A stretch of 30,747 nucleotides of DNA from a virus (Duplodnaviria > Caudoviricetes). Below, one piece after another: positions 3 to 28,494 of this stretch (the stretch's first letter is position 1; each line of letters starts with the position of its first letter). The translations under genes and the position numbers were made by a program. The stretch is taken from positions 1-30,747 of the IMG/VR virus record IMGVR_UViG_3300044759_000011, one strand, 5' to 3'. The notes under the pieces are model-generated. The model was not told the origin of the DNA and made no database searches. It worked only from the letters and a program-made list of their open reading frames with translations.

Positions 3-2936
3 GCTCGCCAGTTGACGGTCACCACGGCCACGGCCAACCTGTCCAAGCTGGCTGGCCTGTCCTACGACACGCCTGGGCGGCTGGCCGAGTCGTCCGCCGG
101 CCCGATCACGGCCTACGTGGCCGGCATCCCCATCGACCAGCAGGGGCGCATGGTGGTCGCCAACGCGGCGGCCGTGCGCTATGCCCCCAATGCCATCCCC
201 ATCACGGCCACGGGGGCCGTGGCCTTGGCGGGTGGTGTCCCGCCCGACAGCACGGCCCCGACAGATCCGACCGGGCTCCTGGCAACGCCCAACTCCGAGA
301 CCCAGGCCACCCTCACCTGGACGGCCTCGACCGACGCCGTGGGCGTTACCCTGTACCGGATCGAGCGCTGCACGGGCGCTGCTTGCGTCAACTTCGCGGA
401 GATTGCCACCGACAACGCATCGCCCTACGTGGACACCACCCTGGCGGCGGCCACGGCGTACCGCTACAGGATCCGCGCCCAGGACGCTGCGCTCAATCTC
501 AGCGGCTACAGCAACATCGCATCTGCTGCCACCCCGGATAACACGGCACCGACCGCGCCGAGCAGTCTCGTGGCAAACCCTGTCAGCGAGACTCAGGTGG
601 ACCTGACCTGGGCGGGCTCGACCGACAACGTGGCCGTCACTGCCTACCTGCTGGAGCGTTGCACGGGTGCTGGGTGCTCCAGCTTCGCTGAGATAGCCCA
701 GCCCACGGCCACGAACTACTCCGACACCGGGCGGGCGGCCAACACGGTCTACCGGTATCAGGTGCGCGCCCGCGACGCGGCGAACAACCGCAGTGGCTAC
801 AGCAACATCGCCCAGGCCACGACGCCAGATAACACTGCGCCGACCGCGCCCACGTCCTTGGTGGCGACGCCCAACTCCGAGACACAGATCACGCTGACGT
901 GGACGGCGGCCACCGACAACGTGGCGGTCACCACATACAGGATCGAGCGTTGCACTGGCGTGGCCTGCAGCAACTTCGCGGAGATTGCCACCGACCCGGC
1001 GTCGCCCTACGTGGACACCGGCAGGACGGTGAACACCACCTATCGCTACCAGATCCGGGCGCAGGATGCGGCCAATAATCTGGGGCCGTACTCCAACATT
1101 GCGACTGCACTCACGCCCGACCAGACCGCGCCGACCGCTCCCACGTCCCTCATCGCCAACCCCGACAGTGCCAGCCAGATCACGCTGACCTGGGCGGCGG
1201 CCACTGACAACGTCGCAGTCGCAGGCTACAACCTGGAGCGTTGCGCGGGCGCGGGGTGCTCCAGCTTCGCTGAGATTGCCACGCCGGCAGCGTCGCCCTA
1301 CTCGGACCCTGGCCTCGCGGCTGGCACCACGTACCGCTACCAGATCCGGGCACGCGACGCCGTGCCCAACTTCGGGCCGTACTCCAGCATCGCGGAGGCC
1401 GTCACCACGGCACCGCCGGCCGGGGCCATCACCCCGCCCGATCTGTTCCTGGCCGGCGAGCTTGGCGGCTGGTGGGATCCCAGCGACATGTCCACCATGT
1501 TCCAGGACACCGCTGGTGCCACGCCTGTCACGGCCGTGGGCCAGCCTGTCGGGCGCATCAATGACAAGAGCGGCCGTGGCAATCATCTGACCCAGGCTAC
1601 AGCCGCCAGCAGGCCGCTGCTGCAGAACGCCAACTTTGAGAATTATCTCGACTTCGACGGGGTGGACGACTTCCTGGTCAGTCCCACGATCAACTTCGCC
1701 ACTGCTGTTGTCAACAGCATGTCGATCTGGCTGGGGGTTAACAAGACCACGGATACACCCACCGGCAGTGCCATCGAACTGAGCGCGAATAGCTCATCGA
1801 GCAACGGCGTGTTCATGTGGCAGATCCCAGGCACGTCGCCCAATGGCTATTTCTACCGGTCGCGGGGCACGGCCGACCCGCAACTGAACATCAACGGGTT
1901 CCTGCAGCCGCGCCTGGACGTACTGTTCTCGATGTCCACCATCACGACCGATAGCATCATCGCCCGCATCAACGGCGTCCAGGTCGCCGGATCTGTTGGC
2001 GACCAGGGTGCTGGTCCCTACGGCAATTGGCCGATCTACATGGGCCGGCGCGGCGGCACCAGCCAGCCATTCAAGGGCCGCATCTACCAAGCCATCGTGC
2101 GCGGTGCGGTCACCACGGCGCAGCACATCATCGACATCGAGCGGTACGTGGCCGGCAGGACCGGGGTTGCCATCACGGCGACGCCGCTCGACCTGTTCCT
2201 GGGCGGCGAGGTGGGTAGCTGGTGGGACCCGAGCGACATCAGCACCCTGTTCCAGGACGCGGCCGGCACAACGCCCGTGACGGCCAGCGGCCAGCCCGTG
2301 GGGATGATCCGGGACAAGTCTGGCCGGGGCAACCACCTGACGCAGACCACGGCCGCATCGCGCCCGACCTACATCGATGACGGCACCTTGAAGTCCCTGC
2401 AGTTCGACGGGGTGGACGACTGGATGGTCAGTCCCACGGTCAACTTCGCGCCCGGGGGCGGGGTCATGAACATGTTCGCTGGCCTGTTCGCGGACACGAA
2501 CGTGGGCGTCGGGCTGGTGTGCGAACTGAGCGCAACGTCCTCGGGCAACAACGGCACCTTTGCGCTCCAGGCTCCACCCGGCGACTTGGACGGGTTCTAC
2601 TGGCGCAGCAAGGGCACGGTGGACACCGTGCTCGACGTGGACGGCATCTCGTTGCCGACGACCAAGGTAATCCACGGGCAGAGTGGCATCCCATCCGACT
2701 ACTCGCAGATACGTGTAAACGGCACGCAGGCACTGCAGTCACTGGCCGACCAGGGCACGGGCACCCACGGCAACTTCCCGATCTACGTGGGTCGGCGCGG
2801 CGGCACCACGTTCCCCTTCAAGGGCAAGATCTACGGCCTGATCCTGAGGGCGGCACCCTGCACCACGAAGGAGCAGGCCGACACCGAGCAGTACCTTGCC
2901 GGCAAGTCGGGCATCTCCTTCGTGTCGAACCCGTAA
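3..2936 (+). CDS. Virion adhesin/tail-fibre-like or decoration protein with 4 fibronectin type III domains and 2 LamG/ConA-like domains (probably 5'-partial)
   Basis: Frame is open to the window edge (GCT CGC CAG TTG). Four 97-aa FN3 units (PDxTAPTAP..LTW.ASTD.V.V..Y.IERC.G..C..FAEIA..YRY.IRA.DAA.N) are followed by two WWDPSD..FQD.AG.TPV..GQPVG.I.DKSGRGNHL..FDGVDD domains. N-terminus is paralogous to 2946..4046. Confidence 0.8.
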   Translation, partial: ARQLTVTTATANLSKLAGLSYDTPGRLAESSAGPITAYVAGIPIDQQGRMVVANAAAVRYAPNAIPITATGAVALAGGVPPDSTAPTDPTGLLATPNSETQATLTWTASTDAVGVTLYRIERCTGAACVNFAEIATDNASPYVDTTLAAATAYRYRIRAQDAALNLSGYSNIASAATPDNTAPTAPSSLVANPVSETQVDLTWAGSTDNVAVTAYLLERCTGAGCSSFAEIAQPTATNYSDTGRAANTVYRYQVRARDAANNRSGYSNIAQATTPDNTAPTAPTSLVATPNSETQITLTWTAATDNVAVTTYRIERCTGVACSNFAEIATDPASPYVDTGRTVNTTYRYQIRAQDAANNLGPYSNIATALTPDQTAPTAPTSLIANPDSASQITLTWAAATDNVAVAGYNLERCAGAGCSSFAEIATPAASPYSDPGLAAGTTYRYQIRARDAVPNFGPYSSIAEAVTTAPPAGAITPPDLFLAGELGGWWDPSDMSTMFQDTAGATPVTAVGQPVGRINDKSGRGNHLTQATAASRPLLQNANFENYLDFDGVDDFLVSPTINFATAVVNSMSIWLGVNKTTDTPTGSAIELSANSSSSNGVFMWQIPGTSPNGYFYRSRGTADPQLNINGFLQPRLDVLFSMSTITTDSIIARINGVQVAGSVGDQGAGPYGNWPIYMGRRGGTSQPFKGRIYQAIVRGAVTTAQHIIDIERYVAGRTGVAITATPLDLFLGGEVGSWWDPSDISTLFQDAAGTTPVTASGQPVGMIRDKSGRGNHLTQTTAASRPTYIDDGTLKSLQFDGVDDWMVSPTVNFAPGGGVMNMFAGLFADTNVGVGLVCELSATSSGNNGTFALQAPPGDLDGFYWRSKGTVDTVLDVDGISLPTTKVIHGQSGIPSDYSQIRVNGTQALQSLADQGTGTHGNFPIYVGRRGGTTFPFKGKIYGLILRAAPCTTKEQADTEQYLAGKSGISFVSNP
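243..1406 (+). repeat. Four tandem FN3-coding repeats, 291-bp period
   Basis: Units begin at 243, 534, 825 and 1116 (PDSTAP, PDNTAP, PDNTAP, PDQTAP); each has a CxGxxC Cys pair. Confidence 0.92.
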
Positions 2937-2945
2937 AGGCACACC

Positions 2946-4046
2946 ATGGCACTCAACGGATCGATTGCCGCTGCTGCCCCCGGGGGTGCGCTGCGCACCG
3001 ACACGGGGCCACCCGTGAGCTTCAATGCCGGCACGCCGCTGCTGGCCGACAACCACGTCGCCACCACCGACACTGCCCAGGCGGGCCGCTATGCCGGCCT
3101 GTCCTACGACCCCGCAGGCCGGCTGGCCGTGGCCGTGGGCGGCACGCCAGTGGTCTGGGTGGCCGGCGTGCCGGTGGACGCGAGCGGACGCACGGTCGGT
3201 GAGGTTGGTGCTGCGGTGGCCTACGCGCCCAATGCGGTGCCCATCACGGCCTCTGGCAGGGTCGCCATGCAGGCTACCGGTGCTCCTGCATTCAGCCCAG
3301 CGCAACTGTTCGCGGCCGGCGAGCCCGGTGGCTGGTGGGACCCGAGCGACATCACCACACTGTTCCAGGATGCGGCCGGCACCATCCCGGTCACGGCCAC
3401 GGGGCAGCCCGTGGGGCGCATCAACGACAAGAGTGGCCGTGGCAACCATCTGGTCCAGGCCACCTCGTTCTCGCGTCCTGTATATACAGTAGCTGGGGCT
3501 TTACGGTATCTCGCCTTTGATGGGGCGAATCATTGGATGGTGTCCGTAGCCAACCTGAACATGTCCACCACCGATGCGCTGACGGCGTGGATAGGCGTGA
3601 CCAAGATCGCGGACAAGACGTTTCACCAGATGCAGTTTGAGTTGTCTGCCAATCTTGGCAACAACGTTGGCTCCTTCTACCTCAACCATCCCGATGCCAA
3701 CGCTCCCTTCTACGAATTCCTCTCTCGCGGGAACGTGGTCAACTTCAACGTCACCGTAGCCACGGCGGCCGCCGGCATGTCCACCAACGTCATCACCGGG
3801 CAAGCCGACATCTCGTCCGACATCAACATCGCACGCAGCAACGGCGTGCAAACGGCCAGCAACACGTTCGACCAGGGTGGCGGCAACTACGGCAGCTATC
3901 CGTTCTGGGTCGGCTGCCGGGGCGGCACCCAGTTCCTGGCCGAGATGAACCTGTACGGCCTGATCATTCGTGGTGCCGCGAGCGTGGCCGGCGACGTGAC
4001 GGCGGCTGAACAGTGGATGGCTGCGAAGGCCGGTATCACGTTCTAA
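2946..4046 (+). CDS. Virion protein with one LamG/ConA-like domain; shorter paralogue of the upstream gene
   Basis: Shares AGLSYD..GRLA..VAG.P.D..GR..YAPNA.PITA.G and WWDPSDI..FQDAAGT.PV..GQPVG.INDKSGRGNHL segments; AAGG RBS upstream. Confidence 0.8.
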   Translation: MALNGSIAAAAPGGALRTDTGPPVSFNAGTPLLADNHVATTDTAQAGRYAGLSYDPAGRLAVAVGGTPVVWVAGVPVDASGRTVGEVGAAVAYAPNAVPITASGRVAMQATGAPAFSPAQLFAAGEPGGWWDPSDITTLFQDAAGTIPVTATGQPVGRINDKSGRGNHLVQATSFSRPVYTVAGALRYLAFDGANHWMVSVANLNMSTTDALTAWIGVTKIADKTFHQMQFELSANLGNNVGSFYLNHPDANAPFYEFLSRGNVVNFNVTVATAAAGMSTNVITGQADISSDINIARSNGVQTASNTFDQGGGNYGSYPFWVGCRGGTQFLAEMNLYGLIIRGAASVAGDVTAAEQWMAAKAGITF

Positions 4047-4386: not shown

Positions 4387-4388
4387 AC

Positions 4389-4420
4389 AAAAGGACGGCC
4401 CCCGAGGGGGCCGTTTAAAC
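4389..4420. terminator. Probable bidirectional intrinsic terminator between convergent modules
   Basis: ACGGCCCC-CGAG-GGGGCCGT hairpin with an AAAA run just to the left (U tract on - strand) and TT on the right; lies where + and - transcription converge. Confidence 0.75.
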
Positions 4421-5808: not shown

Positions 5809-6099
5809 CTAATGTACCTCGGGGCTTCCTGCCGAAGTTTCTTCAACCGGTGTGCGAATTTCGACACCGGTCGGTGAAAGCCCCAGGATCTGCTCTGCGA
5901 ATGACACGCCGATGACGGCGGACAGATGCACGATTGCGTCATGTACCTCCTCGGACAGATACGCAATGTTCTTATTGACGAGGGCCGCCGTGAAACAGTC
6001 CTTCGTGGTCGGCCCCTTGCATATCAGTATACGCACGGAATGCTCGTCCTCCCTAATGGCGACCCGGATCGGGGCCTCCTTGATATGCACGTCTGTCAC
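5809..6099 (-). CDS. Hypothetical protein (96 aa)
   Basis: GTG start overlaps the upstream stop (GTGA) with AAGGAG RBS; normal protein composition. Confidence 0.7.
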   Translation of the reverse strand: MTDVHIKEAPIRVAIREDEHSVRILICKGPTTKDCFTAALVNKNIAYLSEEVHDAIVHLSAVIGVSFAEQILGLSPTGVEIRTPVEETSAGSPEVH

Positions 6100-8172: not shown

Positions 8173-10513
8173 TTGTCACCTCGGGCTTGGCAATATGCAA
8201 TTTGAACTGGCGCACCTCCTGGTCGGTGGCCTGGATGATCCAGCGGTCCTGCTTGGTCGGCGCACCCCGCTTGTACAGGTCGCGGCCCGGACCCAGCATC
8301 CTCGCCAGGACGACACCCGCACTGCGCAGGTTCTTCGGGTGCAACCTGTCCAGGTCGCACAGGGCCAGCATGTGCTGCGGCCCGATGATCACCTGGATGG
8401 GGTACTTGTCGATGTCCTTGCGCCGCTCCAGGCTTTCCAGGATGTCCTCGGGCACGGGGTCAGGTGCCTGGAATTTGTCGGAGGCGGCGGCACGCAGGGC
8501 CTCCTCCTCGTCGGTCAGGTACCACTGCTCGCCGGCCTCCCAGGCTACATACATCTGTGCCCAGAATTGCTGCATGTCCACGCCGTGGTCCACGTGCGGG
8601 CGGCCGATCACCTTGACGGCCAGGAACCGGCCGCTGCCGGTGGGATCGTTGAGAAACTTCTCGTCGTTGACTGACCCGCAGAAGGACGTGCAGCGTGGCC
8701 GGCACAACCAGATGGCCGCGTATGGCAGGCGGTACTCGTCTGTCTCCTCGGTGATGAATGCCTTGAGGGCGGCGATGTCGGACTTCCTGAGGGTGCCGTC
8801 CAGTTCGCCCAGTTCCACGATGCCGCCCTGCAGGGCCTCGTGCTTGCTGTCGCGTGCGCCCAGGCCGTTCAGGTTCAGGTGCTTGCCGATCTTGCCGAAG
8901 CCCGGGGCCAGCGACATCAGCCAGCGGGACTTGCCGATGCGCTGGTCGCCCACGAGCACGAGCACCATGCCCTTCTGCGACTCGCGCCGCACCGTCCAGC
9001 CGCACGTGGCCTCGATGGTTTGCAATGCCCAGCGACGTAAATACCGCCGCCACAGGTCGGGGCGGGTGGTTGTCACCGACCCGGCCAGTAGCTCCAGGCG
9101 GTCCTTGCCGTCCCACTTCTTCGCCAGGATCCAGTCGCGCATCGGGTGCCAGTAGATGCTGTTGGCGATCCGGGCGAAGCAGTCTTTCAACTTCTGCTCG
9201 CTTTTCATGCGAGCGCGGCCGAAGACATCGGTCAACGCAGCTTCCACCATGTCGGCAATCTCCCGCTCGGACTTGTTGCCGAAGCGGTGCATCTCGATGC
9301 GCTCGGGCAGGATGTAGCTGGTCTTGGCCGTCATCAGGTTCAGCCGGGGATGCACGTCCAGCAGGCGCAGGCCGGCCTCGACGTTCTCGTAACTGGTCGG
9401 CTGGATGGCCTTGGGCTTGCCCTCTGCCGTGTTCTCGATGTGGGGCAGCATGCCCACGTCTATGTGCCCCAGGGATGCGCGCAGGCTGACAAAGTCGTAC
9501 AGGTTATGGTCTTGCACGTTGTGCTCCAGGGTGGGCACCGTTACCGGTGGGGGTGGGTCCTCCCTGAAGCTGGCGGCCTCGCGCAGGATCTTTGCGAAGG
9601 CTTCCTGTACGGAGTCCTCGACAACCTCCTTCTTATTCGGGGCGGCTGGTTGCTTCAGCACCCAGTCGATGACCCGCTGGGCGTACTCGGCCTCCTTGCC
9701 GAACTGGCCGTGCGTGTGGTTGCAGTAGGGTAGGCACTTGCCAACGTCGCTGTCGGCCTTGTGCATGTACTTGGCTTCCAACCGGCCGTCCGTGTGCTCC
9801 TCCGGGAATGGGCACAGCATCGGCCACCAGCCGGCATCGTTCTTCGGGCCGATGATGTACCCGTGGTCCAGCAACCAGTCGAAGATAGGGTCGGGCATGC
9901 CGGCCGCTGGCGGCGTCTCGGGCTTGACGCGCCTGGGCTTCGGCGGACCCGGAAAAATTTTTAAAGAGGCTGCGAGACTCTCTAGCGTGTAAACGCTGAG
10001 TGGGTCGAAGTGATGCAGCACCGCCTCGAACGAGTCGCGGCCTTCCTTGTCGTTGATCGAGCCGGGGATCCTGAACAGGCGGCAGGCCCGGTTGACGGCC
10101 TTGTCCTGCATCTTGGCCTCTACGAGGGCGGCCACCAGGGCGTCGGCCGCCGGCACGTCCATGCACCACTCCTCCAGCAGGAAGCCCCACTGGAAGTTGC
10201 CGGGGCTTGTCTCCAGGATCCAGGTCGGGGTGGCGTGGATCATCTTTGCGTCCACCTTCGTGCCCACGTCATCGATCACGATGGCGCGCACGGCGTGCGT
10301 GTTCACGTCCTGGCGCAACTTCTTGTGGTCGCTGGCCCCGGTGTAGAAGTACCAAGCCCCGGGCGGCAATTGCTTGCCGTCCCAGGCCCACGTGCTGAAG
10401 TATTCGCCTTTCTTGAGGGTCACCAGGAAGTGAAGGCCCTCGGGGCAGCCCCGGGCGAGGAGGGAGAGAAAGTTGTACTGCGTGCTAACATTCGCGTCAT
10501 CTTGGGTTGACAT
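8165..10513 (-). CDS. DNA primase-helicase: N-terminal RepB-like primase plus C-terminal VapE/VirE-type P-loop ATPase
   Basis: IVIDDVG, PTWILETSPGNFQWGFLL and RLFRIPGSIN (RepB primase); LVLVGDQRIGKS Walker A, IVELGELD, and FCGSVND..FL.DPTGSGRF (VapE). Confidence 0.9.
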   Translation of the reverse strand: MSTQDDANVSTQYNFLSLLARGCPEGLHFLVTLKKGEYFSTWAWDGKQLPPGAWYFYTGASDHKKLRQDVNTHAVRAIVIDDVGTKVDAKMIHATPTWILETSPGNFQWGFLLEEWCMDVPAADALVAALVEAKMQDKAVNRACRLFRIPGSINDKEGRDSFEAVLHHFDPLSVYTLESLAASLKIFPGPPKPRRVKPETPPAAGMPDPIFDWLLDHGYIIGPKNDAGWWPMLCPFPEEHTDGRLEAKYMHKADSDVGKCLPYCNHTHGQFGKEAEYAQRVIDWVLKQPAAPNKKEVVEDSVQEAFAKILREAASFREDPPPPVTVPTLEHNVQDHNLYDFVSLRASLGHIDVGMLPHIENTAEGKPKAIQPTSYENVEAGLRLLDVHPRLNLMTAKTSYILPERIEMHRFGNKSEREIADMVEAALTDVFGRARMKSEQKLKDCFARIANSIYWHPMRDWILAKKWDGKDRLELLAGSVTTTRPDLWRRYLRRWALQTIEATCGWTVRRESQKGMVLVLVGDQRIGKSRWLMSLAPGFGKIGKHLNLNGLGARDSKHEALQGGIVELGELDGTLRKSDIAALKAFITEETDEYRLPYAAIWLCRPRCTSFCGSVNDEKFLNDPTGSGRFLAVKVIGRPHVDHGVDMQQFWAQMYVAWEAGEQWYLTDEEEALRAAASDKFQAPDPVPEDILESLERRKDIDKYPIQVIIGPQHMLALCDLDRLHPKNLRSAGVVLARMLGPGRDLYKRGAPTKQDRWIIQATDQEVRQFKLHIAKPEVTNE

Positions 10514-10590: not shown

Positions 10591-12666
10591 GACGTACCGC
10601 TGGCCGGTCTTGATTTCGCAGCCGAGTGGGAAGCCATCCAGCCATTCTGGCACCCGGCGCATCTCGCGCTGCAGGATCCGAGCCGCCATAGCGGATTCCC
10701 CAGCCTTGCTGTCGAGCAACAGTTCGTCATGTGTGTGACCGATGACGATGGCATCGATCCGGTGCCGCCGCAGGGCCTCGTCTGTGCGTGCTGCACAGTC
10801 GCGCAGCAGGGTGGCGCACAGGGCCTGGGTGACGTTCTCGGCCAGCAGGCCGTGCCAGATGCGCTCGGTGCGGAAGCCATTGGGCAGGGCCTTCTTGAAG
10901 GTCACCTCGGTTTCCCAGGCGTCGATGGGCTTGCCGCTCCAGCCATCGGTCTTGCCGTCTAGCTCGATGGGCGGGCGGCCACGCTCGACCACGGTCCCCC
11001 GGATGCCGTGGTAGTACAGGGTGGTCAGGCCGGGTAGCTCGCAGGCGACGCTGATGGTCTTGGGCAGCAGCGGCGGGATACGCTTGTAGGCCACGTGCCC
11101 GAGCCTCGTGTCGGTGCCCAGCACGGCCTGCATGAAGGCCCCGTACAGGCCCTTGCTGAACACCGTGGCCCACGGGTTGGCCTCGCGCCACGCGAACACC
11201 ACGTTCTCGGCATCGGCCGGGTGCAGGCTGATGCCGTAGCCCCGGGCCATCGAACGCAGCGCGCCCCTCGCGCCGCCGAACTGCAGCGACAACTCGGCCA
11301 CCTTGCCGATCTGCCTCTCCTCGTCGGGCACGTCGTCGTAGGGGGTGCCGAAGATGCTGGCCGCGTTGACCCGGTACACGTCGGTGCCGTCCCGGTACAG
11401 GTTCAGCTTCCACTGGCAGTCGGCCAACCAGGGCATGCCCTTGGCCTCCACGGCCGTCCAGTCGCCCCAGACCAGGGTGCGGCCCTCGGTGGCCCGGATG
11501 GTGGGCCGCAGCAGGCTCGCCAGGACGTGCATGACCTTGCCCTCTACCTTGTGCTCCAGCACGGCCTCGACGGTCGCCTGCACGTCCTTGGGCGTCTGCC
11601 TGGGGAAGTTGTGGACCTGGATGCCGGTGCTGCTGAACCGCTTGGTCTGGATGGCCCCGTAGCAGATGTAGGCACCCTGGGCACGGCCGCCCTCCTCGGC
11701 CCGACCGGCCATCTTGGCGTACTTGGCGACGCTGGCCTTGCCGGCGTCGTCCACTATCTCGATCAGGTCGATCACCTCGGGCTCGACATCCTTGGCCGCC
11801 TCCGAGCGCAGGAAGTCGGCGCGGGCGGCCTTGTCGGTCGATTCCTTCTCCACCTCCAGGTAGCTGCCGTCCTCCTGCTTCTTCCTGACCATGCGGACGA
11901 AGAATTGTTTAAACACCTCCTCGTCCAGCATGCTGCGAAGGGTTTCCTTGACGCGTGCGTGCTGGCTGGTGCTCGTGATGCGGCCGTCCGTGTCCTGCTT
12001 CAGGCGGGCGTTCAACTCGGCCTTCTCCTTGGCCCCGTATGTCTGGGCCGCCAGGGCCAGCGGCACGTCGATGGGCAGGCCGGCGTCGTTGATGCGCTCG
12101 GTCAGCATGTACTCCTCCTGCTCGTGCTTGAACAGGGGGACCAGCCTGGAGGCCACGAACACCTCGGAGATGACATCGTGCATGCAGTAGCGCATCAGGT
12201 CTATGTACTCGTTGGGGTCGTCGGCATAGCCCGTCAGAGGGGGCAGCAGCGGCTTGCACCACTTCAGCATGATGGCCGCACCCTTGCGCTTCTCGGCCAG
12301 GGACTGCCTGTTGCCCAGGTAGTCGAGGGCATCCTCCAGCCGACCGGGCAGGCCCCGGGCGCGGGCCAGGGCGGCCGTGCAACGCCACCTCTCCAGGGGG
12401 ATGTCCTTGTCCAGCACGTGGCGGGTGATCAGCCGCTCGAACTGGGCGTTCCAGGCGTGCATCTCGCACTTCGGGTTGCGGAAGGCGTCGCGCAGATCGG
12501 CGGGCATCTTGTGGCCGGCTGCGTTGGGCCAGCACTGGACCTTGCCGTAGTCGATGCTGTAGGCGCAGCACAGGATCCTGGTCGAGGGGTGTCTCGCGTA
12601 GACGTGGGCACCAACCATGCGAAGGTCGATGTCGGAGCGGGTTTCGTAGTCGAAGTGGCAGATCAT
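10585..12666 (-). CDS. Phage family A DNA polymerase with 3'-5' exonuclease domain
   Basis: ExoI DYETRS, ExoII AWNAQFE, ExoIII YCMHDV; motif A DWTAVEAK, motif B RQIGKVAELSLQFG, motif C HTHDE; start at ATG 12666 (MICHFDYE). Confidence 0.95.
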   Translation of the reverse strand: MICHFDYETRSDIDLRMVGAHVYARHPSTRILCCAYSIDYGKVQCWPNAAGHKMPADLRDAFRNPKCEMHAWNAQFERLITRHVLDKDIPLERWRCTAALARARGLPGRLEDALDYLGNRQSLAEKRKGAAIMLKWCKPLLPPLTGYADDPNEYIDLMRYCMHDVISEVFVASRLVPLFKHEQEEYMLTERINDAGLPIDVPLALAAQTYGAKEKAELNARLKQDTDGRITSTSQHARVKETLRSMLDEEVFKQFFVRMVRKKQEDGSYLEVEKESTDKAARADFLRSEAAKDVEPEVIDLIEIVDDAGKASVAKYAKMAGRAEEGGRAQGAYICYGAIQTKRFSSTGIQVHNFPRQTPKDVQATVEAVLEHKVEGKVMHVLASLLRPTIRATEGRTLVWGDWTAVEAKGMPWLADCQWKLNLYRDGTDVYRVNAASIFGTPYDDVPDEERQIGKVAELSLQFGGARGALRSMARGYGISLHPADAENVVFAWREANPWATVFSKGLYGAFMQAVLGTDTRLGHVAYKRIPPLLPKTISVACELPGLTTLYYHGIRGTVVERGRPPIELDGKTDGWSGKPIDAWETEVTFKKALPNGFRTERIWHGLLAENVTQALCATLLRDCAARTDEALRRHRIDAIVIGHTHDELLLDSKAGESAMAARILQREMRRVPEWLDGFPLGCEIKTGQRYVK

Positions 12667-14563: not shown

Positions 14564-14572
14564 GTTTAAACC

Positions 14573-15742: not shown

Positions 15743-16357
15743 TTAGCCGCCGACCGCCACGCCCTCGTGCGTGTGGCAGGCGGGGCAGGACATGTTGCCC
15801 TCGACCATCACGATGGCCGACTGCGACATGCGCCAGATCGCGCCGCAGTTGTCGCACGCACACTTCAGCATGCGGGTGGTCTGCTTCTTGACCGGGCTCT
15901 TGCTCTTGTCGAGCATCTGGTGGGGGAACGCGCCGTGCTTGTCGAGCATGCGCTCGGTGACCTTCGACAGAATCTCCGGGCGCAGGCCCATGGTGGTGGG
16001 CTTGCCCTCCAGGCCCATCCTGTTGGCGAGCATCACGAATGCCTTCTTGTGGCCGTTGGTGCAGTTGTCCACGGCATGCACCAGTTCGTGGGCCAGGATC
16101 GACATGACCTTGGCACTGTCCTCGATCTTCGGGCTGATGAAGATCTCGTTGATGCCGGCCTTGCTCGCCAGGGTGGACCAGCACTCCCCGATACGCTTCT
16201 GCGAGTCGCCGCCACCGGGCCACGAGCAGGACACCTGGACAGGCGGGACCACGATGTCGCTATCGCGGCGCATCGTTTCGGCGCGCAGCACCGACACGGC
16301 ATGCTGGAGCCACTGCTCGCGGGTGATCGACTTGACGGGCTTGGTGGTGGTGGTCAT
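15743..16357 (-). CDS. SprT-like zinc metalloprotease domain protein with C-terminal zinc ribbon
   Basis: EIFISP..LAHELVHA...GH...F (HExxH plus third His); C-terminal CACDNCG...CPACH. Confidence 0.85.
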   Translation of the reverse strand: MTTTTKPVKSITREQWLQHAVSVLRAETMRRDSDIVVPPVQVSCSWPGGGDSQKRIGECWSTLASKAGINEIFISPKIEDSAKVMSILAHELVHAVDNCTNGHKKAFVMLANRMGLEGKPTTMGLRPEILSKVTERMLDKHGAFPHQMLDKSKSPVKKQTTRMLKCACDNCGAIWRMSQSAIVMVEGNMSCPACHTHEGVAVGG

Positions 16358-16392
16358 GGGGTTCCTTGGTTGCTTGTTTAAACGACAATGAG

Positions 16393-16421
16393 AGTGTAGC
16401 TCGGGGCTATAACCTTGTCAA
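16393..16421 (-). promoter_or_regulatory. Sigma70-type promoter TTGACA-N17-TACACT
   Basis: Consensus -35, 17-nt spacer containing TAGCCCCGAGC, near-consensus -10; overlaps the end of the upstream gene. Confidence 0.85.
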
Positions 16422-18795: not shown

Positions 18796-18805
18796 GTGTG
18801 GGGGT

Positions 18806-19033
18806 TTAAACGATGCTGTTGAGGTGGAAGCGTGCTTCCCAGCAGCACTTCTCGGCGTGCTCGGTGTTGCGCTCGGCGAACAGTTGGGCATCGGCAATGC
18901 GACGCAGGGCGATCTGCATGTGGGCACCAGCCGGGTGGGCGTGATGCAGCTTGGCCTTGGCGATCTTTCTCGCCTGGGCCTTGAGGACCTTGACAGTGGC
19001 GAGGATCTCGGTGGAGGTGGTGTAGGTGGTCAT
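18806..19033 (-). CDS. Hypothetical early protein (75 aa)
   Basis: AAGGA RBS; own promoter upstream. Confidence 0.75.
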   Translation of the reverse strand: MTTYTTSTEILATVKVLKAQARKIAKAKLHHAHPAGAHMQIALRRIADAQLFAERNTEHAEKCCWEARFHLNSIV

Positions 19034-19415: not shown

Positions 19416-19445
19416 AGTATAGCCCAGGGCTTAAAGCCCTGTCAA
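19416..19445 (-). promoter_or_regulatory. Strong sigma70-type promoter TTGACA-N18-TATACT
   Basis: Consensus -35 and 5/6 -10; spacer GGGCTTTAAGCCCTGGGC contains the shared box. Confidence 0.88.
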
Positions 19446-19456
19446 CAGTGGGGCGT

Positions 19457-19819
19457 TTAAACGAAGCTGTAGTTGTCCAGGTCGGTGTCCACGGCCGGGG
19501 CAGCACGCTTGCCCGAGGTGTGGCGGCGGTCGGTGATGTCCCAGCCGCCGATGCCCATGCCCTTCCAGTTGCGGTTCGCCAGGGCGAAGCGCAGCAGGTT
19601 GTTGACCACGTGCGTCTGATCGGTATCGAACATCTCGGCCAGGGCCTCGATGGTGGGTGCCACCTTGCCGTCCAGCCGCAGGGTCTTCACGGCATTGGCC
19701 TCTCGCCATGCACGTTGACGGGCCGCCGCATCGGCGTGCTTGGCAGGGCGGCCACGCTTGGCCTTGGGAGCGGCCTCGACTTGGGCCGGGGAGGTGGTGT
19801 CGATGAATGCTGTCGTCAT
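19457..19819 (-). CDS. Putative DNA-binding protein: AT-hook-like KRGRP plus ribbon-helix-helix-like domain
   Basis: AKRGRPAKH; KTLRLD..V...IEALAE.FD.DQTHVVNNLLRFAL (alternating strand followed by two helices); first leftward gene after the switch region. Confidence 0.65.
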   Translation of the reverse strand: MTTAFIDTTSPAQVEAAPKAKRGRPAKHADAAARQRAWREANAVKTLRLDGKVAPTIEALAEMFDTDQTHVVNNLLRFALANRNWKGMGIGGWDITDRRHTSGKRAAPAVDTDLDNYSFV

Positions 19820-21068: not shown

Positions 21069-21288
21069 CATGCCCAAGCTGTTTAAACTGCTGACAGGTG
21101 GGCGGCCCATGATGCGCAATGGGCTGGCCTTCAGGGACGCAGCCTCGGGTGCGTTCATCTACTTCTGGGTTGACACGCTCGGGCGTCGTTGGCTCGCAGA
21201 GGATGCGTGGTCGCTGCGGCGGGTGCCGGTCGGCCACGGCGAACGTGTGAAGCTGCCCGAGCAGGGCAATGAAGGACCTGGACCATGA
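21061..21288 (+). CDS. Hypothetical protein (75 aa, MADMPKLFKLL...)
   Basis: Overlaps the upstream stop and the downstream start (translational coupling). Confidence 0.6.
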   Translation: MADMPKLFKLLTGGRPMMRNGLAFRDAASGAFIYFWVDTLGRRWLAEDAWSLRRVPVGHGERVKLPEQGNEGPGP

Positions 21289-21873: not shown

Positions 21874-23231
21874 CCGATCTGATCCTGCCCAACGGGTTCA
21901 CCCCCCGGCCGCCGCAGAAGGAGTTGATGCGCTACTTCGACCACGGCGGCCTGCGGGCCGCCGCGTGTTGGCCGCGACGGTACGGCAAGGACCTGACCAT
22001 GGTCCACCAGACCGTCAAGATGATGTTTGAACGTCCAGGCATGTACTTCCACATGCTGCCCAACCACAAGCAGGCCAGGAAGGTCATCTGGGACGGGTTC
22101 GACAACACCGGCAGGAAGATCATCGACACCGCCATGCCGGCCAGCATCCGGCAGGACACGAATCGCACAGAGATGAAGATCACGCTGAAGAACGGCGCGA
22201 TCTGGCAGCTTGTAGGCTCGGACTACTACGACAGCATCGTCGGTGCCAACCCATTCGGCCTCGTGATGAGTGAGTCCGCCCTCTCAGACCCCCGGGCGTG
22301 GTCCATATTCCGCCCGATCCTTGCCGGCAACGGAGGCTGGGCAGCCTTTATAAGCACACCCCGGGGCTACAACCACTTTTATGACCTGATGCAGCTTGCG
22401 AAGAAGAATGATCATTGGTACCACAGCCATTTGAGTGTCGAGCACACCCGCCATATCCCGGAATCGGTCCTTTCGGACGAGCGGCACGAGATGCCAGACG
22501 AGTTGTACCGCCAGGAGTACGGGTGCGATTTCAGCGCGGCGAACGTCGGGGCCATTTTCGGCCGCTACATCGAGCAGGCCGAGAAGGAGGGCCGGATCTG
22601 TGCCCTGAACATGCCTGGGGATCATGAGATTTGGGTTACCAGCGACATAGGCTACAGGGACAAGGCCGCGTTCGTCTGGTGGCGGCGGTTCAGGGGCGGC
22701 TTTGAGATATTCCACTACGACGATGGGTCAGGCATGGACGCCGAGGAGTGGTCGGGCCGGCTGGGCAAGCAACCGAAGGCGGACGTGCTGGTGCTGCCCC
22801 ACGACGCGAAGGTGAAGACGTTTCAGAGCAAGCGGTCCACGGTCGAGACATTCCTCGCCAACCCACCCTGGCCCGGTTGCGAGATACGTGTAAACGAGAT
22901 ACGCAAGAAGGCCGACAGCATCAACGCCGGCCGGCTGATGATGCGCAGGGTCAGGATCAGCAACGAACCGGTGTGCGAGCCCTTCGTGATGGCTATGCGC
23001 GCCTACGCCTACAAGTACGACGAGGAAACCAAGACGTTCAGCAGCGAGCCAGAGCACAATTGGGCCTCCCACCCGGCCGATGCGTTCATGGAAGGGGCGG
23101 CGAGGTTGTCCGAGCTTGAGCCGGCACCGCCCAAGAGGACGATCATCGTGCCGTCCATCGACCGGGCCTTTACGCTTGACCAGTTGCACGAGGCGGTCAA
23201 CCCCAACACCCAGCGCAGCGGGAGGATCTGA
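21870..23231 (+). CDS. terL: Terminase large subunit
   Basis: FTPRPPQ adenine-binding motif, WPRRYGKD Walker A, LVMSE Walker B, FISTPRG.NHFY, nuclease SDIGYRD and H.WASHPADAF. Confidence 0.96.
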   Translation: MTDLILPNGFTPRPPQKELMRYFDHGGLRAAACWPRRYGKDLTMVHQTVKMMFERPGMYFHMLPNHKQARKVIWDGFDNTGRKIIDTAMPASIRQDTNRTEMKITLKNGAIWQLVGSDYYDSIVGANPFGLVMSESALSDPRAWSIFRPILAGNGGWAAFISTPRGYNHFYDLMQLAKKNDHWYHSHLSVEHTRHIPESVLSDERHEMPDELYRQEYGCDFSAANVGAIFGRYIEQAEKEGRICALNMPGDHEIWVTSDIGYRDKAAFVWWRRFRGGFEIFHYDDGSGMDAEEWSGRLGKQPKADVLVLPHDAKVKTFQSKRSTVETFLANPPWPGCEIRVNEIRKKADSINAGRLMMRRVRISNEPVCEPFVMAMRAYAYKYDEETKTFSSEPEHNWASHPADAFMEGAARLSELEPAPPKRTIIVPSIDRAFTLDQLHEAVNPNTQRSGRI

Positions 23232-25399
23232 TGCCCGGTCCCTACGACCAGCCCCCGGTTCCAGGCCAGCCGCCAATGCCGGGTGACGAAAAGGGCGGAT
23301 ACGCCAAGGACACCCCTGCCCAGCGCAAGAGCAAAGCGGAGGCTGGAAAGCAGCTTCCCGTGAAGGAGGCCCGCGAGGCCAAGAAGGATCCGGCCAAGAT
23401 GGCCGAGGTGTGGGAAAAGGAACTGCAGGCGGCCAAGAAGGAGTTGACGAAGTTCCACACCCAGGCCCGCAAGCTGGTCCAGCGGTACCTGGATGAGCGC
23501 GAGTCGTCGGCCATCGTGGACGGCGCGGATTCGCGGGTCAACCTGTTCTGGTCCAACACCGAAGTCCTCAAGTCCAGCCTCTATGCGAAACCGCCGAAGG
23601 TGGATGTCTCCAACAGCTACAAGGACAGCAACGACGACGTGGCACGCGTGGCGGGCAACATCCTCCAGAGGATGCTCAACAACGACGTGGAAGAAGACGA
23701 CGAGAGCACGTACCCGGAAATCACGAGGCAGGCGGTAGGCGACTACCTGATCGTCGGCCTGGGTCAGGTCTGGTACCGCTACGAGGTTGAAACGCAGACT
23801 TCGTCCACCGACCCAGTGACCGACCCCGAGACTGGCACGGTGCTGGCCGAGCCTGTCGAGTACGAGGCCATCACGCATGAGGATGCGCCGGCCGACTACG
23901 TCTACTGGGAAGACTTCTGGTGGTCGCCGGCACGGGTCTGGCAGGACGTGCGGTGGGTGGCGCGGCGGGTGTACATGAACCGCGAGGAGTTGATCGCACG
24001 GTTTGGCGACAAGATCGGCAAGGACGTGCCGATCAGCAAGCAGAAGCCCAGGGGTGACTCCATATCGCCCCAGAACGACCCCTGGGAGAAGGCCGGCGTG
24101 TTCGAGATATGGGACAAGACCACGAAGTGCGCCTACTGGCACGTCATGGGCTACAACATCATCTGCGACCACAAGGAAGACCCGATGAAGCTGCGCGGGT
24201 TCTTCCCGTGCCCCTGCCCGCTGATGGCGAACCTCACCACCAGCAAGTTCATGCCCCGGGCCGACTTCCTGATGGCCCAGGACCAGTACGCGCAGATCGA
24301 TGAGCTTTCCACGCGCCTGAAGTACCTCATCAAGGCTTGCAAGGTGGTTGGTGCCTACGACAAGACCAGCACCCCGCTTGGGCGGATCTTCAGCGAGGGC
24401 ATGGAGAACCAGATGATCCCGGTGGACAACTGGGCCGCCTTCGCGGAGAAGGGCGGCATCAAGGGGTCCATGGACTTCGTGCCCATCGAGATAGTGGCCC
24501 AGGTCATCGAGCGGCTGACCCAGCAGCGCGACATCCTCAAGGCTACCCTGTACGAGGTGCTGGGCATCGGGGACATCATGCGCGGCATGACCAACCCGGA
24601 TGAAACCCTGGGGGCGCAGCAACTCAAGGCTGAATTCGGCGGCAACCGTCTGCAGTTTAAACAGCAACAGATAGGATGCTGGGTAGCGGCCGGCCAGCGC
24701 ATCCGGTCCCAGATCTTCTGCTATCACTTCCAGCCCGACACGATCATCGAGCGGTCCAACATCATGCTCAGTGAGGACGCCCCCATGGCCCAGCAGGCCG
24801 TGGAATTCCTCAAGAGCGGGGCCGAGGCCAAGCAGTACCGCATTACGGTCGAGTCTGAAACGATGGCTATGGTGGACTGGGCACAGGAACGCGACAGCAG
24901 GACCCAGTTCATGGAAGCGGTCGGCGGGTTCCTGTCCAGCACCAGCGACGTGATGCAGACGATGCCCAAGGCGGTGCCCGTGCTGCTGCAGATGATGAAG
25001 TGGGGCCTGGGCGGCTTCCGGGTGTCCAAGGAAATCGAGACTGTGCTCGATCAGGCCATCAAGGAAGCCAGCACGCCGCCCGAGCCGGCCCCGCCGACAC
25101 CCGAGGACGACGCGGCGGTCGAGAAGGATCTGGCCTCTGCCGACCAGTCCCGTGCCACGGCCCTGGAGAAGCGTGTCCAGGCCGGCATGGACCTGTTGTC
25201 GGCCCAGCAGATGGGCCTGCCGGTCGCCGGCATGCCTCTCGGCCCGGAGATAGGCCCCAAGCCCCCAGGGCAGCCCCCAGGCGGCCCCCCAGGCCCGCCG
25301 GAAGGCCCTGGTGGGCCTCCGGGTCCTGGCGGCCCTCCTGGCGGCCAGATGCCGCCTCCTGGCGGCCCCCCGGGTCCACAAGGTCCACCACCTCAGTAG
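23231..25399 (+). CDS. Portal protein with Pro/Gly-rich termini
   Basis: Directly after terL; NLFWSN.EVLK..LYAKPPK.DV, G.GQVW.RYE, V.WVARRVYM, GFFPCP.PL and GI.DI.RG..ETLGAQQLK motifs. Confidence 0.9.
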   Translation: MPGPYDQPPVPGQPPMPGDEKGGYAKDTPAQRKSKAEAGKQLPVKEAREAKKDPAKMAEVWEKELQAAKKELTKFHTQARKLVQRYLDERESSAIVDGADSRVNLFWSNTEVLKSSLYAKPPKVDVSNSYKDSNDDVARVAGNILQRMLNNDVEEDDESTYPEITRQAVGDYLIVGLGQVWYRYEVETQTSSTDPVTDPETGTVLAEPVEYEAITHEDAPADYVYWEDFWWSPARVWQDVRWVARRVYMNREELIARFGDKIGKDVPISKQKPRGDSISPQNDPWEKAGVFEIWDKTTKCAYWHVMGYNIICDHKEDPMKLRGFFPCPCPLMANLTTSKFMPRADFLMAQDQYAQIDELSTRLKYLIKACKVVGAYDKTSTPLGRIFSEGMENQMIPVDNWAAFAEKGGIKGSMDFVPIEIVAQVIERLTQQRDILKATLYEVLGIGDIMRGMTNPDETLGAQQLKAEFGGNRLQFKQQQIGCWVAAGQRIRSQIFCYHFQPDTIIERSNIMLSEDAPMAQQAVEFLKSGAEAKQYRITVESETMAMVDWAQERDSRTQFMEAVGGFLSSTSDVMQTMPKAVPVLLQMMKWGLGGFRVSKEIETVLDQAIKEASTPPEPAPPTPEDDAAVEKDLASADQSRATALEKRVQAGMDLLSAQQMGLPVAGMPLGPEIGPKPPGQPPGGPPGPPEGPGGPPGPGGPPGGQMPPPGGPPGPQGPPPQ

Positions 25400-25406: not shown

Positions 25407-26837
25407 ATGAGCGAAACCACCGATCTGCTGCGGGGCCGTGACACCCGCCCACCAGCGGAATTGAAGCCTACGCCACGGCACAAAGGGTGGGGAGCCTTGT
25501 CCGACCTTCTGCGCGGCGGGCGCGACATCGCCAACAAGGCGGATCTGCCCCTGGTGGGGCCGGTGGGCGACTTCGCCCTCGGGAAGATCCCCGAGGAGGT
25601 GAACGAGTGGTCCTACGGCAACTCGCCGGTCCAGATCAACCCCATGGCGGGCCGCACGGCCTCGTTCGTGCCCGAGATAAAGCGGGGGCGCAAAGAGGGC
25701 GTGGCGGACGTGCTGGGGTCCATCGGCAGCCCCACCGGCAGGAAGGCCCTGACGGCCGCTGCGCTGGGCGGCTTGGCCCCCAGCGGGGTGGATGCGGCCT
25801 CGTACCTCGCGCACACGGCCCTGAAGCCGCACCCGAAGGTGGGCACCCGGTTCGAGCGCGAGATGGTCGGCAAGATGGCCCCGAAGACGCCCCAGCGCAT
25901 CGAGGACATCGAGGGCGCGAGCATTACCGCCATGCCGTGGGACCAGAGCAGTCGGGGGCAGCGCATCACCAGCATCTCGGACGAGAAGTTGCCCAGTCCG
26001 ATCATCACCACGGGCGGCCAGGACTACGCCCGGGATCTGGCGAACATCGAGCAGGGCGTCGGTGGGGCGTCGAACCTGGGCATCGCCAAGCGGATCGCAG
26101 ACCGCAACGAGGCTGCCCGGGAGGCTGGCCTCGCAGGCGGGGGCAGCGGCCGGGTCATCATGATGCCGACCACGATGGGGGCCGACTCGGAGTTTTTCTC
26201 CACCATGCCGGCCGATGCCCTGGTGCAGTTGCTGCGCGGGCGTAACCTGGGCGCGAAGGACATCCAGAAGTTGAACGAGATGGTCCGCACCTCCCCGGTC
26301 AAGAAGCCTGGGGGCACGGAGCGGCCGTTCGGCAGGTTCGCCGGCTTTGAGGATCCCGACTTTGAGGAGCAGATGCGGATCGGCCTGGGCAAGGGTGCGC
26401 CGGCTGGGGAACTGCGCAAGGCCATTGCGGGGCAGCTTACGAAGGTCGGCCCGCAGAAGATGATCGGGTTCAACAAGCAGGACCTGATGAACGCCATTAC
26501 CGACCCCGACCTGATGGGCGTGGGCAAGGGGCACATGGGCAACACGCTGATCGAGGCCCTGCGGGGGACGCCGCTGACGAAGTCCGCGCACCCGGCTTAC
26601 GACACCGACTTCGCCGGCCGGTATGTCGGCAGCATGGGCGCGAACATCCCCATCGAGAGCGTGATGCCCAAGACCTACGCCGCCACCCTGCGCGAGATGC
26701 AGGGCAAGACGAGCGACCCGACCAAGCTGCGCAACATGACCATCGGCGCGATGCAGACGCGCAAGGGTGGCTTCTCCGAGTTGGTGGACAAGGAAACCAT
26801 CGACTCTGTCAACCGCTGGCTGGAGGCGAACAAGTAA
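25407..26837 (+). CDS. Uncharacterised head-region protein (476 aa)
   Basis: Long GC3-biased ORF starting 7 nt after the portal stop; TAATG overlap with the next gene; no motif recognised. Confidence 0.8.
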   Translation: MSETTDLLRGRDTRPPAELKPTPRHKGWGALSDLLRGGRDIANKADLPLVGPVGDFALGKIPEEVNEWSYGNSPVQINPMAGRTASFVPEIKRGRKEGVADVLGSIGSPTGRKALTAAALGGLAPSGVDAASYLAHTALKPHPKVGTRFEREMVGKMAPKTPQRIEDIEGASITAMPWDQSSRGQRITSISDEKLPSPIITTGGQDYARDLANIEQGVGGASNLGIAKRIADRNEAAREAGLAGGGSGRVIMMPTTMGADSEFFSTMPADALVQLLRGRNLGAKDIQKLNEMVRTSPVKKPGGTERPFGRFAGFEDPDFEEQMRIGLGKGAPAGELRKAIAGQLTKVGPQKMIGFNKQDLMNAITDPDLMGVGKGHMGNTLIEALRGTPLTKSAHPAYDTDFAGRYVGSMGANIPIESVMPKTYAATLREMQGKTSDPTKLRNMTIGAMQTRKGGFSELVDKETIDSVNRWLEANK

Positions 26838-27232
26838 TGCCCACCTACGACTTCAGGTGCGAAGCGTGTAAACGCGAATACAGTGTGCTCCGGTCGATCC
26901 GCGAGCATTGCATCAATCCCCGGCCATTCGTGTGCTGCGGCCAACCCGCCGAGCGATGGTTCACACCCGGCGGTACGGGCGTTGCACTGAACAACGCACT
27001 GGCCGGGGACCGGCACTACGAGGGTCTGCGGGCCACGGACGGCACCGACATCAGCACCCGCACCAAGCACCGCGAGTACATGAGGCGCAACAACCTGACG
27101 ACCATCGACGACTTCAAGGACACCTGGGCGAAGGCCCAGAAAATCCGCGAGGAGTACCGGCAGGGCAAGGGCCACGGCGCAATCACGCGTAACGATATTG
27201 CCCAGGTCATAGCCGACATGGGCGACCGCTGA
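26837..27232 (+). CDS. FmdB-like zinc-ribbon protein
   Basis: MPTYDFRCEAC...CCG.PAER N-terminal pattern. Confidence 0.8.
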   Translation: MPTYDFRCEACKREYSVLRSIREHCINPRPFVCCGQPAERWFTPGGTGVALNNALAGDRHYEGLRATDGTDISTRTKHREYMRRNNLTTIDDFKDTWAKAQKIREEYRQGKGHGAITRNDIAQVIADMGDR

Positions 27233-27264: not shown

Positions 27265-28365
27265 ATGGGACCCGAAGACGACGATCTGCGCGGCGATTTA
27301 GAGACTGCGTTTGGCGAGGATGGCGGCACCGAGGTGCCGCCCGCGCCGCCGCCGGTTGACAAACCGCTTGACACTCCGCCCGCACCCGAGTCAGTCGAGG
27401 CGGTTGCCCCGAAGGGCGAGCGCGACGCCCTCGGACGGTTCCTGAAGAAGGATGCCGCCGCTGCACCAACGCCGGGGGTGGCTTCTCCTCCCGCCCCGGG
27501 CGGGCCACTCGTCCCGGCCACTCCAGCGGCGGCACCCCCTGCCCCGGGCCTGCAGGCCCCGGCCGGGTGGGGGCCTGCGGTGCGTGAGCACTGGGCCAAT
27601 CTGCCCCAGCCCGTGCAGGAGTACGTCCACCAGCGTGAGCAACAGATGCAGCGGTGGGCTAACGACACGGCCCCCATGCGCCAAGCCGGCGAGCAGTTCA
27701 TCCGGGCGGTCGAGCCGTACATGATGACCATCCGGGCCGAGGGGGTGGACCCGTTGACGGCGGTGACCAACCTGATGCAGTTCGGCACCACCCTGCGCTT
27801 CGGCACGCCCCACGAGAAGGCCACGGTCATCTCGCAGTGCATCCAGCTATACGGGGTGGACATCCCGGCCCTGGACGCCCTGCTGGCCGGTCAGGCACCC
27901 CCGCAGGGGCAGGCACCGCAGATCAACGTCCAGGCCGAGGTGCAGCGTGCCCTGGCACCCCTGATGCAGCAGGCGCAGCAGCGGCAGCAGTGGGAATGGC
28001 AGCAGACCAACGAGCAGGCCCGCAGCGAGTTGCTGGCCTTCGCGGAGGACCCGAAGCACGAATTCATCTCGGACGTGCGCGAGATCATGGCCGACCTGAT
28101 CGAGGTGGCCGAGCGGCAGCGTTATCCCCTGCCGCTGCAGGACGCTTACGACAGGGCATGCGCTTTGCATCCCGAGGTGTCGAAGGTCATAATGGCAAGG
28201 CAGCAAGGTGTAAACGCCAGTAAGCTGACACAGAACGCCCAGCGGGCACGTGCCGCAGCGGTCAGTGTCAAAGGCGTGGCACCGGTTGGCAATCCGACTG
28301 CGGGCGAACCGTCATCGATACGGGAATCCATCGAGGCGGCCATCGACGCGCATTCGAGGGTCTAG
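27265..28365 (+). CDS. Putative capsid scaffolding protein
   Basis: Immediately before MCP; acidic/Pro-rich N-terminus with RD..GRF, AP.GW...W..LP, Gln-rich helices, C-terminal SIRESIEAA; AAGGAG RBS. Confidence 0.8.
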   Translation: MGPEDDDLRGDLETAFGEDGGTEVPPAPPPVDKPLDTPPAPESVEAVAPKGERDALGRFLKKDAAAAPTPGVASPPAPGGPLVPATPAAAPPAPGLQAPAGWGPAVREHWANLPQPVQEYVHQREQQMQRWANDTAPMRQAGEQFIRAVEPYMMTIRAEGVDPLTAVTNLMQFGTTLRFGTPHEKATVISQCIQLYGVDIPALDALLAGQAPPQGQAPQINVQAEVQRALAPLMQQAQQRQQWEWQQTNEQARSELLAFAEDPKHEFISDVREIMADLIEVAERQRYPLPLQDAYDRACALHPEVSKVIMARQQGVNASKLTQNAQRARAAAVSVKGVAPVGNPTAGEPSSIRESIEAAIDAHSRV

Positions 28366-28437
28366 GCGGAGTAGAACCGCCTCGGGGGCCTAGAACCGCT
28401 GCAGCGGCCATCGAACCCCCTGAGGAGCGGCCATCGA
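28336..28437 (+). repeat. Short direct repeats upstream of the capsid gene (GCGGCCATCGA x3; TAGAACCGC x2)
   Basis: GCGGCCATCGA at 28336, 28404 and 28427; TAGAACCGC at 28372 and 28391. Confidence 0.75.
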
Positions 28438-28494
28438 AAGCCCGGATGGACAAGGTAGCGTGTAAACGCAGGCTTAACTCATCCTGGAGGCTAT

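Follow-up and report, generated by a model that had tools for sequence, protein, structure and literature searches.

The window analysed here, a stretch of 30,747 nt (positions 1 to 30,747 of IMG/VR record IMGVR_UViG_3300044759_000011; Duplodnaviria, Caudoviricetes), is a 30.7-kb fragment of a phage of ~40 kb that occurs in sediment metagenomes. It encodes PolA, a primase-helicase, an SNF2 helicase, a DUF2800 exonuclease, terminase, portal and capsid. Dispersed along it is the octamer GTKTAAAC, a signal that is real and general over several host phyla. Strong covariation points to the SprT-like zinc protein encoded at 15743–16357 as the likely reader of this word. The sites, their spacing, their position at promoters and the joint change of the word with residues 159–162 of the protein are all directly observed.

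A preliminary description of the window, made from the letters alone, had placed GTTTAAAC at eight positions and GTGTAAAC at six, and all 14 proved exact (Table 1), as did the absence of GTTTACAC from the plus strand of the window, the G that follows GTGTAAAC in six of six copies and the 15-mer common to the sites at 2713 and 22888. The reported enrichment is borne out: the order-2 Markov expectation for the two octamers is only 0.01 and 0.11 copies, and eight sites in called open reading frames (ORFs) compare with 0.38 on average, and never more than 3, when codons were shuffled synonymously 1000 times with protein sequence and codon usage kept. The codons concerned are indeed rare, GTA, AAA, TTT and CGT accounting for 6, 6, 11 and 12 % of their respective amino acids. 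The sites had also been described as embedded in genes, which holds for half of them: seven of the 14 lie firmly inside genes, two lie over stop codons and five are intergenic or in leaders (the ORF caller placed 21081 inside an ORF, hence eight called-ORF sites). The word is sharp, because near-miss words are not enriched (nine copies of its 32 one-mismatch neighbours, against 6.8 expected). In the window, 14 of 15 copies of TAAAC are part of the octamer, and the flanking-base preference at the 8-bp core is for C/G only, at the two bases next to the core.

Among relatives of the window the word occurs in dialects, which we call type A (GTKTAAAC), type B (CTTTAAAG) and type C (RTKTAAAT); the individual variants named in the analysis are GTTTAAAC, GTGTAAAC, CTTTAAAG, ATTTAAAT and GTGTACAC. 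Eight large type-A contigs carry 8–21 copies of GTKTAAAC in both orientations, and most of the window clade has 10–21 per ~40 kb. Densities are similar for CTTTAAAG in contigs G020 (17 copies) and G021 (16) and for RTKTAAAT in G022 (10) and G024 (9). On a quick capsid tree the dialects are intermixed (for example, L085 versus L086). Some sites are fixed in relatives, such as those in terL and the sprT leader; others vary with the peptide unchanged, as in the portal gene. At the terL site, 15 of 18 type-A rows read CGT GTA AAC and three of three type-C rows CGT GTA AAT, and type B has common codons; the AAC to AAT change in type C is silent. Such codon shifts at the terL and PolA positions indicate that the genome is rewritten to follow the word.

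Two regularities of the window fared differently in these relatives. Strand polarity, which the preliminary description took as a property of the signal, is not a rule: the 6:0 ratio of the window becomes 59:34 relative to the terL strand (13 relatives pooled, which are not independent), 33 sense to 29 antisense relative to gene direction, and 23 forward to 20 reverse in the cultured phage Henoccus. Even spacing is weak in the window itself (coefficient of variation 0.61 versus 0.90, p=0.057) but clear across 19 genomes, every one of which has a coefficient smaller than the null mean, with p<0.05 in 15, although these genomes are not independent. The proposal of a genome-wide, DNA-level signal is supported, as is the idea that a genome-organising or protective protein recognises the sites, the likely protein being the product of gene 15743–16357.

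That protein was singled out by covariation. The proteins of 36 contigs were clustered, and 42 shared clusters were compared by dialect. Only the SprT-like cluster combined diagnostic columns with a pair of type-B proteins that resembled one another as closely as they resembled any non-B protein. These columns sit in a likely DNA-reading segment before the first cysteine pair, residues 159–162, which reads Q-x-x-R in type A, Q-P-T-R in type C and x-x-T-Y in type B: Pro at 160 tracks words that end in T, and Tyr at 162 tracks CTTTAAAG. A search by the SprT protein alone then yielded 79 new loci, 54 of them unused in rule-making and 45 remaining after de-duplication (35–48 % identity). In the held-out Q-x-x-R class, A words numbered 232 against 20.8 expected, with C words at 74 against 67.1 and B words at 14 against 15.8. 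The Q-P-T-R class had 68 C words (3.9 expected), 11 A words (3.1) and no B words (1.5), and the Tyr class 11 B words where 0.0 were expected. All 28 significant per-locus calls in the three residue classes agree with the rule. Tyr has two separate origins on the protease-domain tree, which excluded a distant Q-P-T-R group without the motif used for domain cutting.

The protein itself has the look of a protease joined to a zinc ribbon. Its score against Pfam SprT-like (PF10263), 20.3 bits, lies below the cut-off of 25.6, and many close homologues bear the label; it matches phrog_6361 (E 1.7e-35) and is 37 % identical to gp46 of phage Lizalica. A structure model (predicted local distance difference test, pLDDT, 82) has a zincin fold, with VIA Z scores of 7.0, 6.7 and 6.6 to 4jiu, 6mdx and 5xbn (90–102 residues, root-mean-square deviation 3.7–3.9). 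These matches, to abylysin, SPRTN and Wss1, are middling, and the best Foldseek E value is 7e-3; IrrE and CapP are among the weak fold matches. NCBIfam and PADLOC gave no family above cut-off, a PDB sequence search gave no match, the Atlas matches for the ribbon were all below 0.9, and no helix–turn–helix (HTH) profile matched this covarying protein. Across 116 homologues H90, H94 and H103 are invariant and E91 is at least 90 % conserved, and all but one of 120 close homologues retain HExxH. The best 146 single-ribbon matches in 1.8 billion proteins include 92 full-length ribbon-bearing proteins, 86 of them with HExxH, and 54 shorter ones, many of which resemble fragments. P0253, P0262, P0306, P0344 and P0345 are full-length, with the ribbon present and HExxH absent. 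The ribbon, modelled as two strands, a helix and a strand, has four cysteines that are invariant in 36 diverse sequences, and its basic residues are conserved.

Three window sites stand at sigma-70-like promoters, one 9 nt below a −10 box, which is that of the SprT-like gene, and two 8 and 9 nt above −35 boxes. In 27 of 51 loci a site is found no more than 110 bp upstream of the SprT-like gene, the genome's own word is in or adjoining the SprT-like promoter in most genomes compared, and an operator-like position or promoter-spacer site recurs in relatives and cultured phages. In G030, five sites are clustered at positions 17500–17724, a stretch of about 220 bp that precedes the SprT-like gene region. 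The small ORF 16407–16604 (minus strand; phrog_2089, of unknown function), whose end the promoter overlaps in the window, immediately precedes the SprT-like gene in many relatives; it is presumably HicA-like, to judge by its look.

Cultured phages and plasmids extend the association. The SprT-like homologue is present in 164 phage and 73 plasmid records, of which 18 phages and three plasmids were examined for sites. The phages of Arthrobacter, Microbacterium, Streptomyces, Dinoroseobacter and Pseudanabaena with an intact specificity strand have 16–43 sites, and all 13 intact-strand phages have 4–43 against 0–2 for a control word: Microdon 43, Henoccus 42, Lizalica 24, Zeta1847 22, R5C, Maureen, Floof and Emotion 17 each, Pan1 16, 4A 14, Mica 7, and ep3 and Persinger 4 each. 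Where the strand is degenerate or the ribbon absent, Kieran, Bernstein, AvGardian and Epa5 have no sites and FP1 has one. Plasmid pSF4 has eight sites. In the other two plasmids, NZ_CP123772.1 and NZ_CP012607.1, the strand ends in R-H and type-A words are absent; GTGTACAC occurs there 10 times (0.37 expected) and twice (0.35 expected), one copy in each being just upstream of the gene. G003 has four copies of GTGTACAC against 0.18 expected, and on these counts the word is probably a fourth dialect. The window holds a single GTGTACAC, at 12870–12877 (0.29 expected). Some SprT-like genes (loci L313, L314 and L315) have neighbours of note: an AAA/MipZ-type partition ATPase or KfrB gene on plasmids, and a ParB-like gene in phage Kieran.

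How might the protein use these sites? We are confident, from the covariation, that the SprT-like protein binds the octamers directly, and we think it probable that it represses its own gene. The zinc ribbon is predicted to read the octamers, with the protein probably binding the palindrome as a dimer, and a site in its own promoter would limit its synthesis. We regard as about equally likely and unlikely the further step, namely that it is proteolytically active on a host substrate, which might be a silencer, a nuclease that translocates or a topoisomerase trapped on DNA, for example. Taken together, a self-repressing protease docked on its own DNA and acting on host proteins is the reading that we favour by a modest degree, because the active site is conserved, the sites are evenly spaced and free in orientation, and an integrase is missing from most site-rich elements. 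The array would spread the predicted zinc protease about every 2–3 kb over the genome, where it could cut host proteins loading or travelling on phage DNA. In its fullest form, which we hold with slightly more doubt than belief, a private 8-letter address every few kb would let a Spartan-like protease patrol self DNA alone and strip it of silencers or defence enzymes of the host; a change of one or two residues would reprogramme the address, and the genomes of phages and plasmids of several phyla would follow by silent changes. Phage SprT-like peptidases have been suggested, in the part of the source drawn on here, to cut host proteins (Iyer et al., PMC7824862).

Several observations weigh against the docked protease or the covariation beneath it. 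Support for the whole account is correlation throughout. Sixteen of the 45 held-out loci gave no significant call, and L248 and L250–L252, which are GC-rich with an intact strand, have just one or two sites in 9–12 kb. The code is incomplete, as G030 (Q-P-T-R, mostly C-ending words) and L254 (D-T-C-R, type-A words) show. Catalysis is not always needed, given the six of 92 full-length ribbon proteins that lack HExxH, and the protease does not depend on the array, since site-less homologues retain HExxH. Of 140 sites, 51 are outside ORFs, although just 7 % of the DNA is non-coding, a placement that suits regulation equally well. Capsid-based comparisons support the link between gene and sites, within limits. 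Control loci found through the capsid gave no call in 41 of 41 cases, a set that omitted L105, L119 and L128 (3, 4 and 7 copies of CTTTAAAG) and L132 and L133, both of contig G030, in which the gene is present. Eight near-complete capsid relatives without the SprT-like gene have 0–2 sites each, a co-absence that is weak alone because the whole replication module differs too. The site-rich G030, found via the capsid alone, does have the gene; it was not found in the half-genomes G028 and G029, and L105 was not searched. A scan of a genome collection found just two distant capsids, both site-free.

The most serious rival would give the same reader a transcriptional role: like a stoperator-binding repressor, it would silence the genome and confer superinfection immunity, its protease domain being a self-cleaving induction switch and the dialects immunity groups. 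We consider this rather unlikely, but sites do stand at promoters and leaders, and the phenotypes of cultured phages suit it and so count against the docked protease. Lysogens of cluster AZ phages are immune, and no repressor is named in the portion of the preprint drawn on (10.1101/2020.11.21.392811). Liebe, with a truncated SprT-like gene, forms clear plaques and Maureen, with 17 sites, turbid ones, as given in part of a second preprint (10.1101/2025.05.26.655371); three further changes, however, separate Liebe from Maureen. Within the relevant parts of PMC7302621, integrases but no repressor are given for Zeta1847 and cluster EH, and cluster EB is lytic; in the EB phages the strand is degenerate and sites are absent. 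Integrases are present in Zeta1847, Lizalica, Mica and Persinger, and IMG/VR classes G021 and G032 as proviruses. Against this, a tyrosine or serine integrase was absent from 22 of the 28 records searched, including all 10 of the window clade as well as Henoccus, R5C, Pan1, 4A and ep3; the sites are unoriented to transcription (33:29); and the gene and sites occur on plasmids as well. The docked-protease and repressor readings can each hold in different phages.

The stoperators of cluster A phages (L5, Bxb1) are the closest precedent for such a repressor: the relevant part of PMC6550527 describes 20–30 sites genome-wide, some at promoters, with motif and protein diverging together. The site number found here is near that figure, rising to 43 in Microdon, and some sites are likewise promoter-linked. 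The cluster A sites, however, are 13–14 bp, asymmetric and oriented with transcription, whereas those described here are 8 bp, (near-)palindromic and unoriented; the cluster A reader is a monomeric HTH repressor rather than a protease-ribbon protein, and cluster A phages are temperate, whereas most elements here are integrase-less.

Three other explanations are far weaker. The array might be a titration counter, in which genome copies soak up a self-repressing protein and so time the passage from early to late expression. The operator-position site in the protein's own promoter and the site at the capsid leader agree with this, but a counter needs number and not even spacing, and has no need of rare codons within essential genes or of a conserved active site; we judge it very unlikely. 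Improbable to a still greater degree is an enzyme that nicks or modifies DNA site-specifically, with the words as programmed single-strand nicks or as packaging or ejection marks, both of which the preliminary description had offered. Regular spacing agrees with nicking, and the nuclease YbeY shares the zincin fold (Z 5.2). Phages such as T5, phiKMV-like phages and tf do repeat a short nick word along the genome, but their words are asymmetric and on one strand, whereas the octamer is (near-)palindromic, in both orientations, at promoters and also on plasmids. It is also common to phages with unrelated virions and shifts independently of the capsid and terminase genes, and the best fold matches of the protein are proteases, with the catalytic Glu conserved. 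Equally remote is a host protein that binds or methylates the words, with the sharing of hosts as the source of the SprT link. The word is common to phages of Actinobacteria, Proteobacteria and Cyanobacteria; Floof has 17 sites and Kieran none on the same host species, M. foliorum; and, in comparison with a HIP1-like host palindrome, none of 201 sampled Gammaproteobacteria genomes came near phage density, counts being mostly close to the control word (a sample of one class, which the window's host may lie outside, and which includes the unpublished G085 and G187).

Two families of protein bear comparison with the putative docked protease. SPRTN and Wss1, like the phage 'SprT-like protease' (Lizalica gp46, phrog_6361), combine an HExxH zincin with a small C-terminal domain, as here. 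SPRTN and Wss1 recognise DNA structure and not sequence, whereas the protein described here would be directed by a sequence word. ImmA, IrrE and CapP are also HExxH proteases with a part in controlling genes of mobile elements, and they cut a separate repressor upon sensing single-stranded DNA; to our knowledge they have no dispersed sites of their own, which sets them apart from the system in the window.

The SprT-like family and its predicted C-terminal DNA-binding domain are already published. Part of one preprint predicts DNA binding by this domain in the SprT-like protease of cluster AZ phages (10.1101/2025.05.26.655371), and the portion of PMC12363180 consulted notes the structural likeness of the phage protein to SPRTN and nothing beyond. 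For the family, neither a target word nor a genome-wide array nor a recognition code was found in the literature covered, which did not extend to subscription papers, PhagesDB notes or bioRxiv supplements (such as Fig. S3 of the AZ preprint). The present results supply a widespread phage protein, annotated merely as 'SprT-like protease', with a target sequence, together with a small code for its recognition. If the docked-protease reading is true, the system represents a new kind of self-marking and counter-defence, with a reprogrammable DNA reader of ~50 residues. If instead the repressor reading is true, this protein is the immunity repressor so far missing for phages of Arthrobacter cluster AZ and Microbacterium cluster EH, and the system joins the stoperator kind as a novel form of it. 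Cultured phages on laboratory hosts, for example those of cluster AZ, make both readings testable.

Table 1. Octamer sites of the window and features of the SprT-like gene
Feature	Position	Strand	Remarks
GTGTAAAC	2713..2720	+	Inside fibronectin-repeat tail/adhesin gene, R-V-N codons
GTTTAAAC	4413..4420	.	Between convergent genes, adjoining GC hairpin; retained in G002
GTGTAAAC	9987..9994	+	In minus-strand primase-helicase gene (V-Y-T); retained in 5/7 other aligned type-A genomes
GTTTAAAC	11907..11914	.	In PolA; at the same codons G020/G046 have CTTTAAAG and G002 has GTTTACAC, with Lys replaced by Thr
GTTTAAAC	14564..14571	.	Flanked by a stop codon and the DUF2800 exonuclease ATG
GTTTAAAC	16376..16383	.	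9 nt downstream of −10 box of SprT-like gene promoter (operator position)
GTTTAAAC	18804..18811	.	Over stop codon; 8 nt upstream of −35 box, promoter 18766–18795
GTTTAAAC	19455..19462	.	Over stop codon of AT-hook/RHH-like gene; 9 nt upstream of −35 box, promoter 19416–19445
GTTTAAAC	21081..21088	.	Directly past ORF 20547–21068; retained in G001
GTGTAAAC	22888..22895	+	In terL (R-V-N)
GTTTAAAC	24655..24662	.	In portal (Q-F-K-Q); in 5/16 type-A rows, peptide unchanged
GTGTAAAC	26866..26873	+	In small zinc-ribbon gene 26837–27232
GTGTAAAC	28208..28215	+	In scaffold-like gene 27265–28365
GTGTAAAC	28460..28467	+	Major capsid gene leader; retained in G002, G005, G010, G012
Sigma-70-like promoter of SprT-like gene, TTGACA-17-TACACT	16393..16421	-	Consensus match only
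SprT-like zinc metalloprotease fold with C-terminal zinc ribbon, 204 aa	15743..16357	-	Putative octamer reader
HExxH (H90-E91-x-x-H94) and third histidine H103	16049..16090	-	Conservation in homologues
Zinc ribbon, residues 154–201 (C168, C171, C191, C194; K157, K158, K165, R176)	15755..15898	-	
Candidate specificity segment Q159-T160-T161-R162	15872..15883	-	Covariation with word

Two other proteins of the window were considered as readers and rejected. The protein encoded at 19457–19819 (minus strand), with an AT-hook and a ribbon–helix–helix (RHH)-like domain, is the product of a conserved early gene with 72 homologues at 57–78 % identity and weakly matches NikR (E 0.25). L152 (type A) and L158 (type C) share an identical core, the cores of L172 (type A) and L157 (type B) are nearly identical, and G004, G010 and G012 have sites but no match to it. 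In the HTH protein encoded at 6096–6455 the helix does not differ among the three dialects.

Several minor features accompany the array. A methyltransferase-like ORF precedes terL in many relatives and is absent from the window, and in G002, G005, G008, G011 and G020–G023 the PolA, primase and exonuclease subtypes are exchanged among close relatives. ORF 20547–21068 contains two 16-mers, at 20602–20617 and 20752–20767, one perfect and one with a mismatch relative to what we take to be the parS consensus; G001 and G025 have two copies each. No parA or parB was recognised in the window, and the phage may recruit host ParB via these parS-like 16-mers. Lastly, the sigma-70-like early promoters at 17775–17804, 18766–18795, 19069–19106 and 19416–19445 have a CCCAGGG/CCCTGGG-type inverted repeat in the spacer and the early leaders bear AAACGAAA repeats, both of which are possibly the sites of a second regulator.

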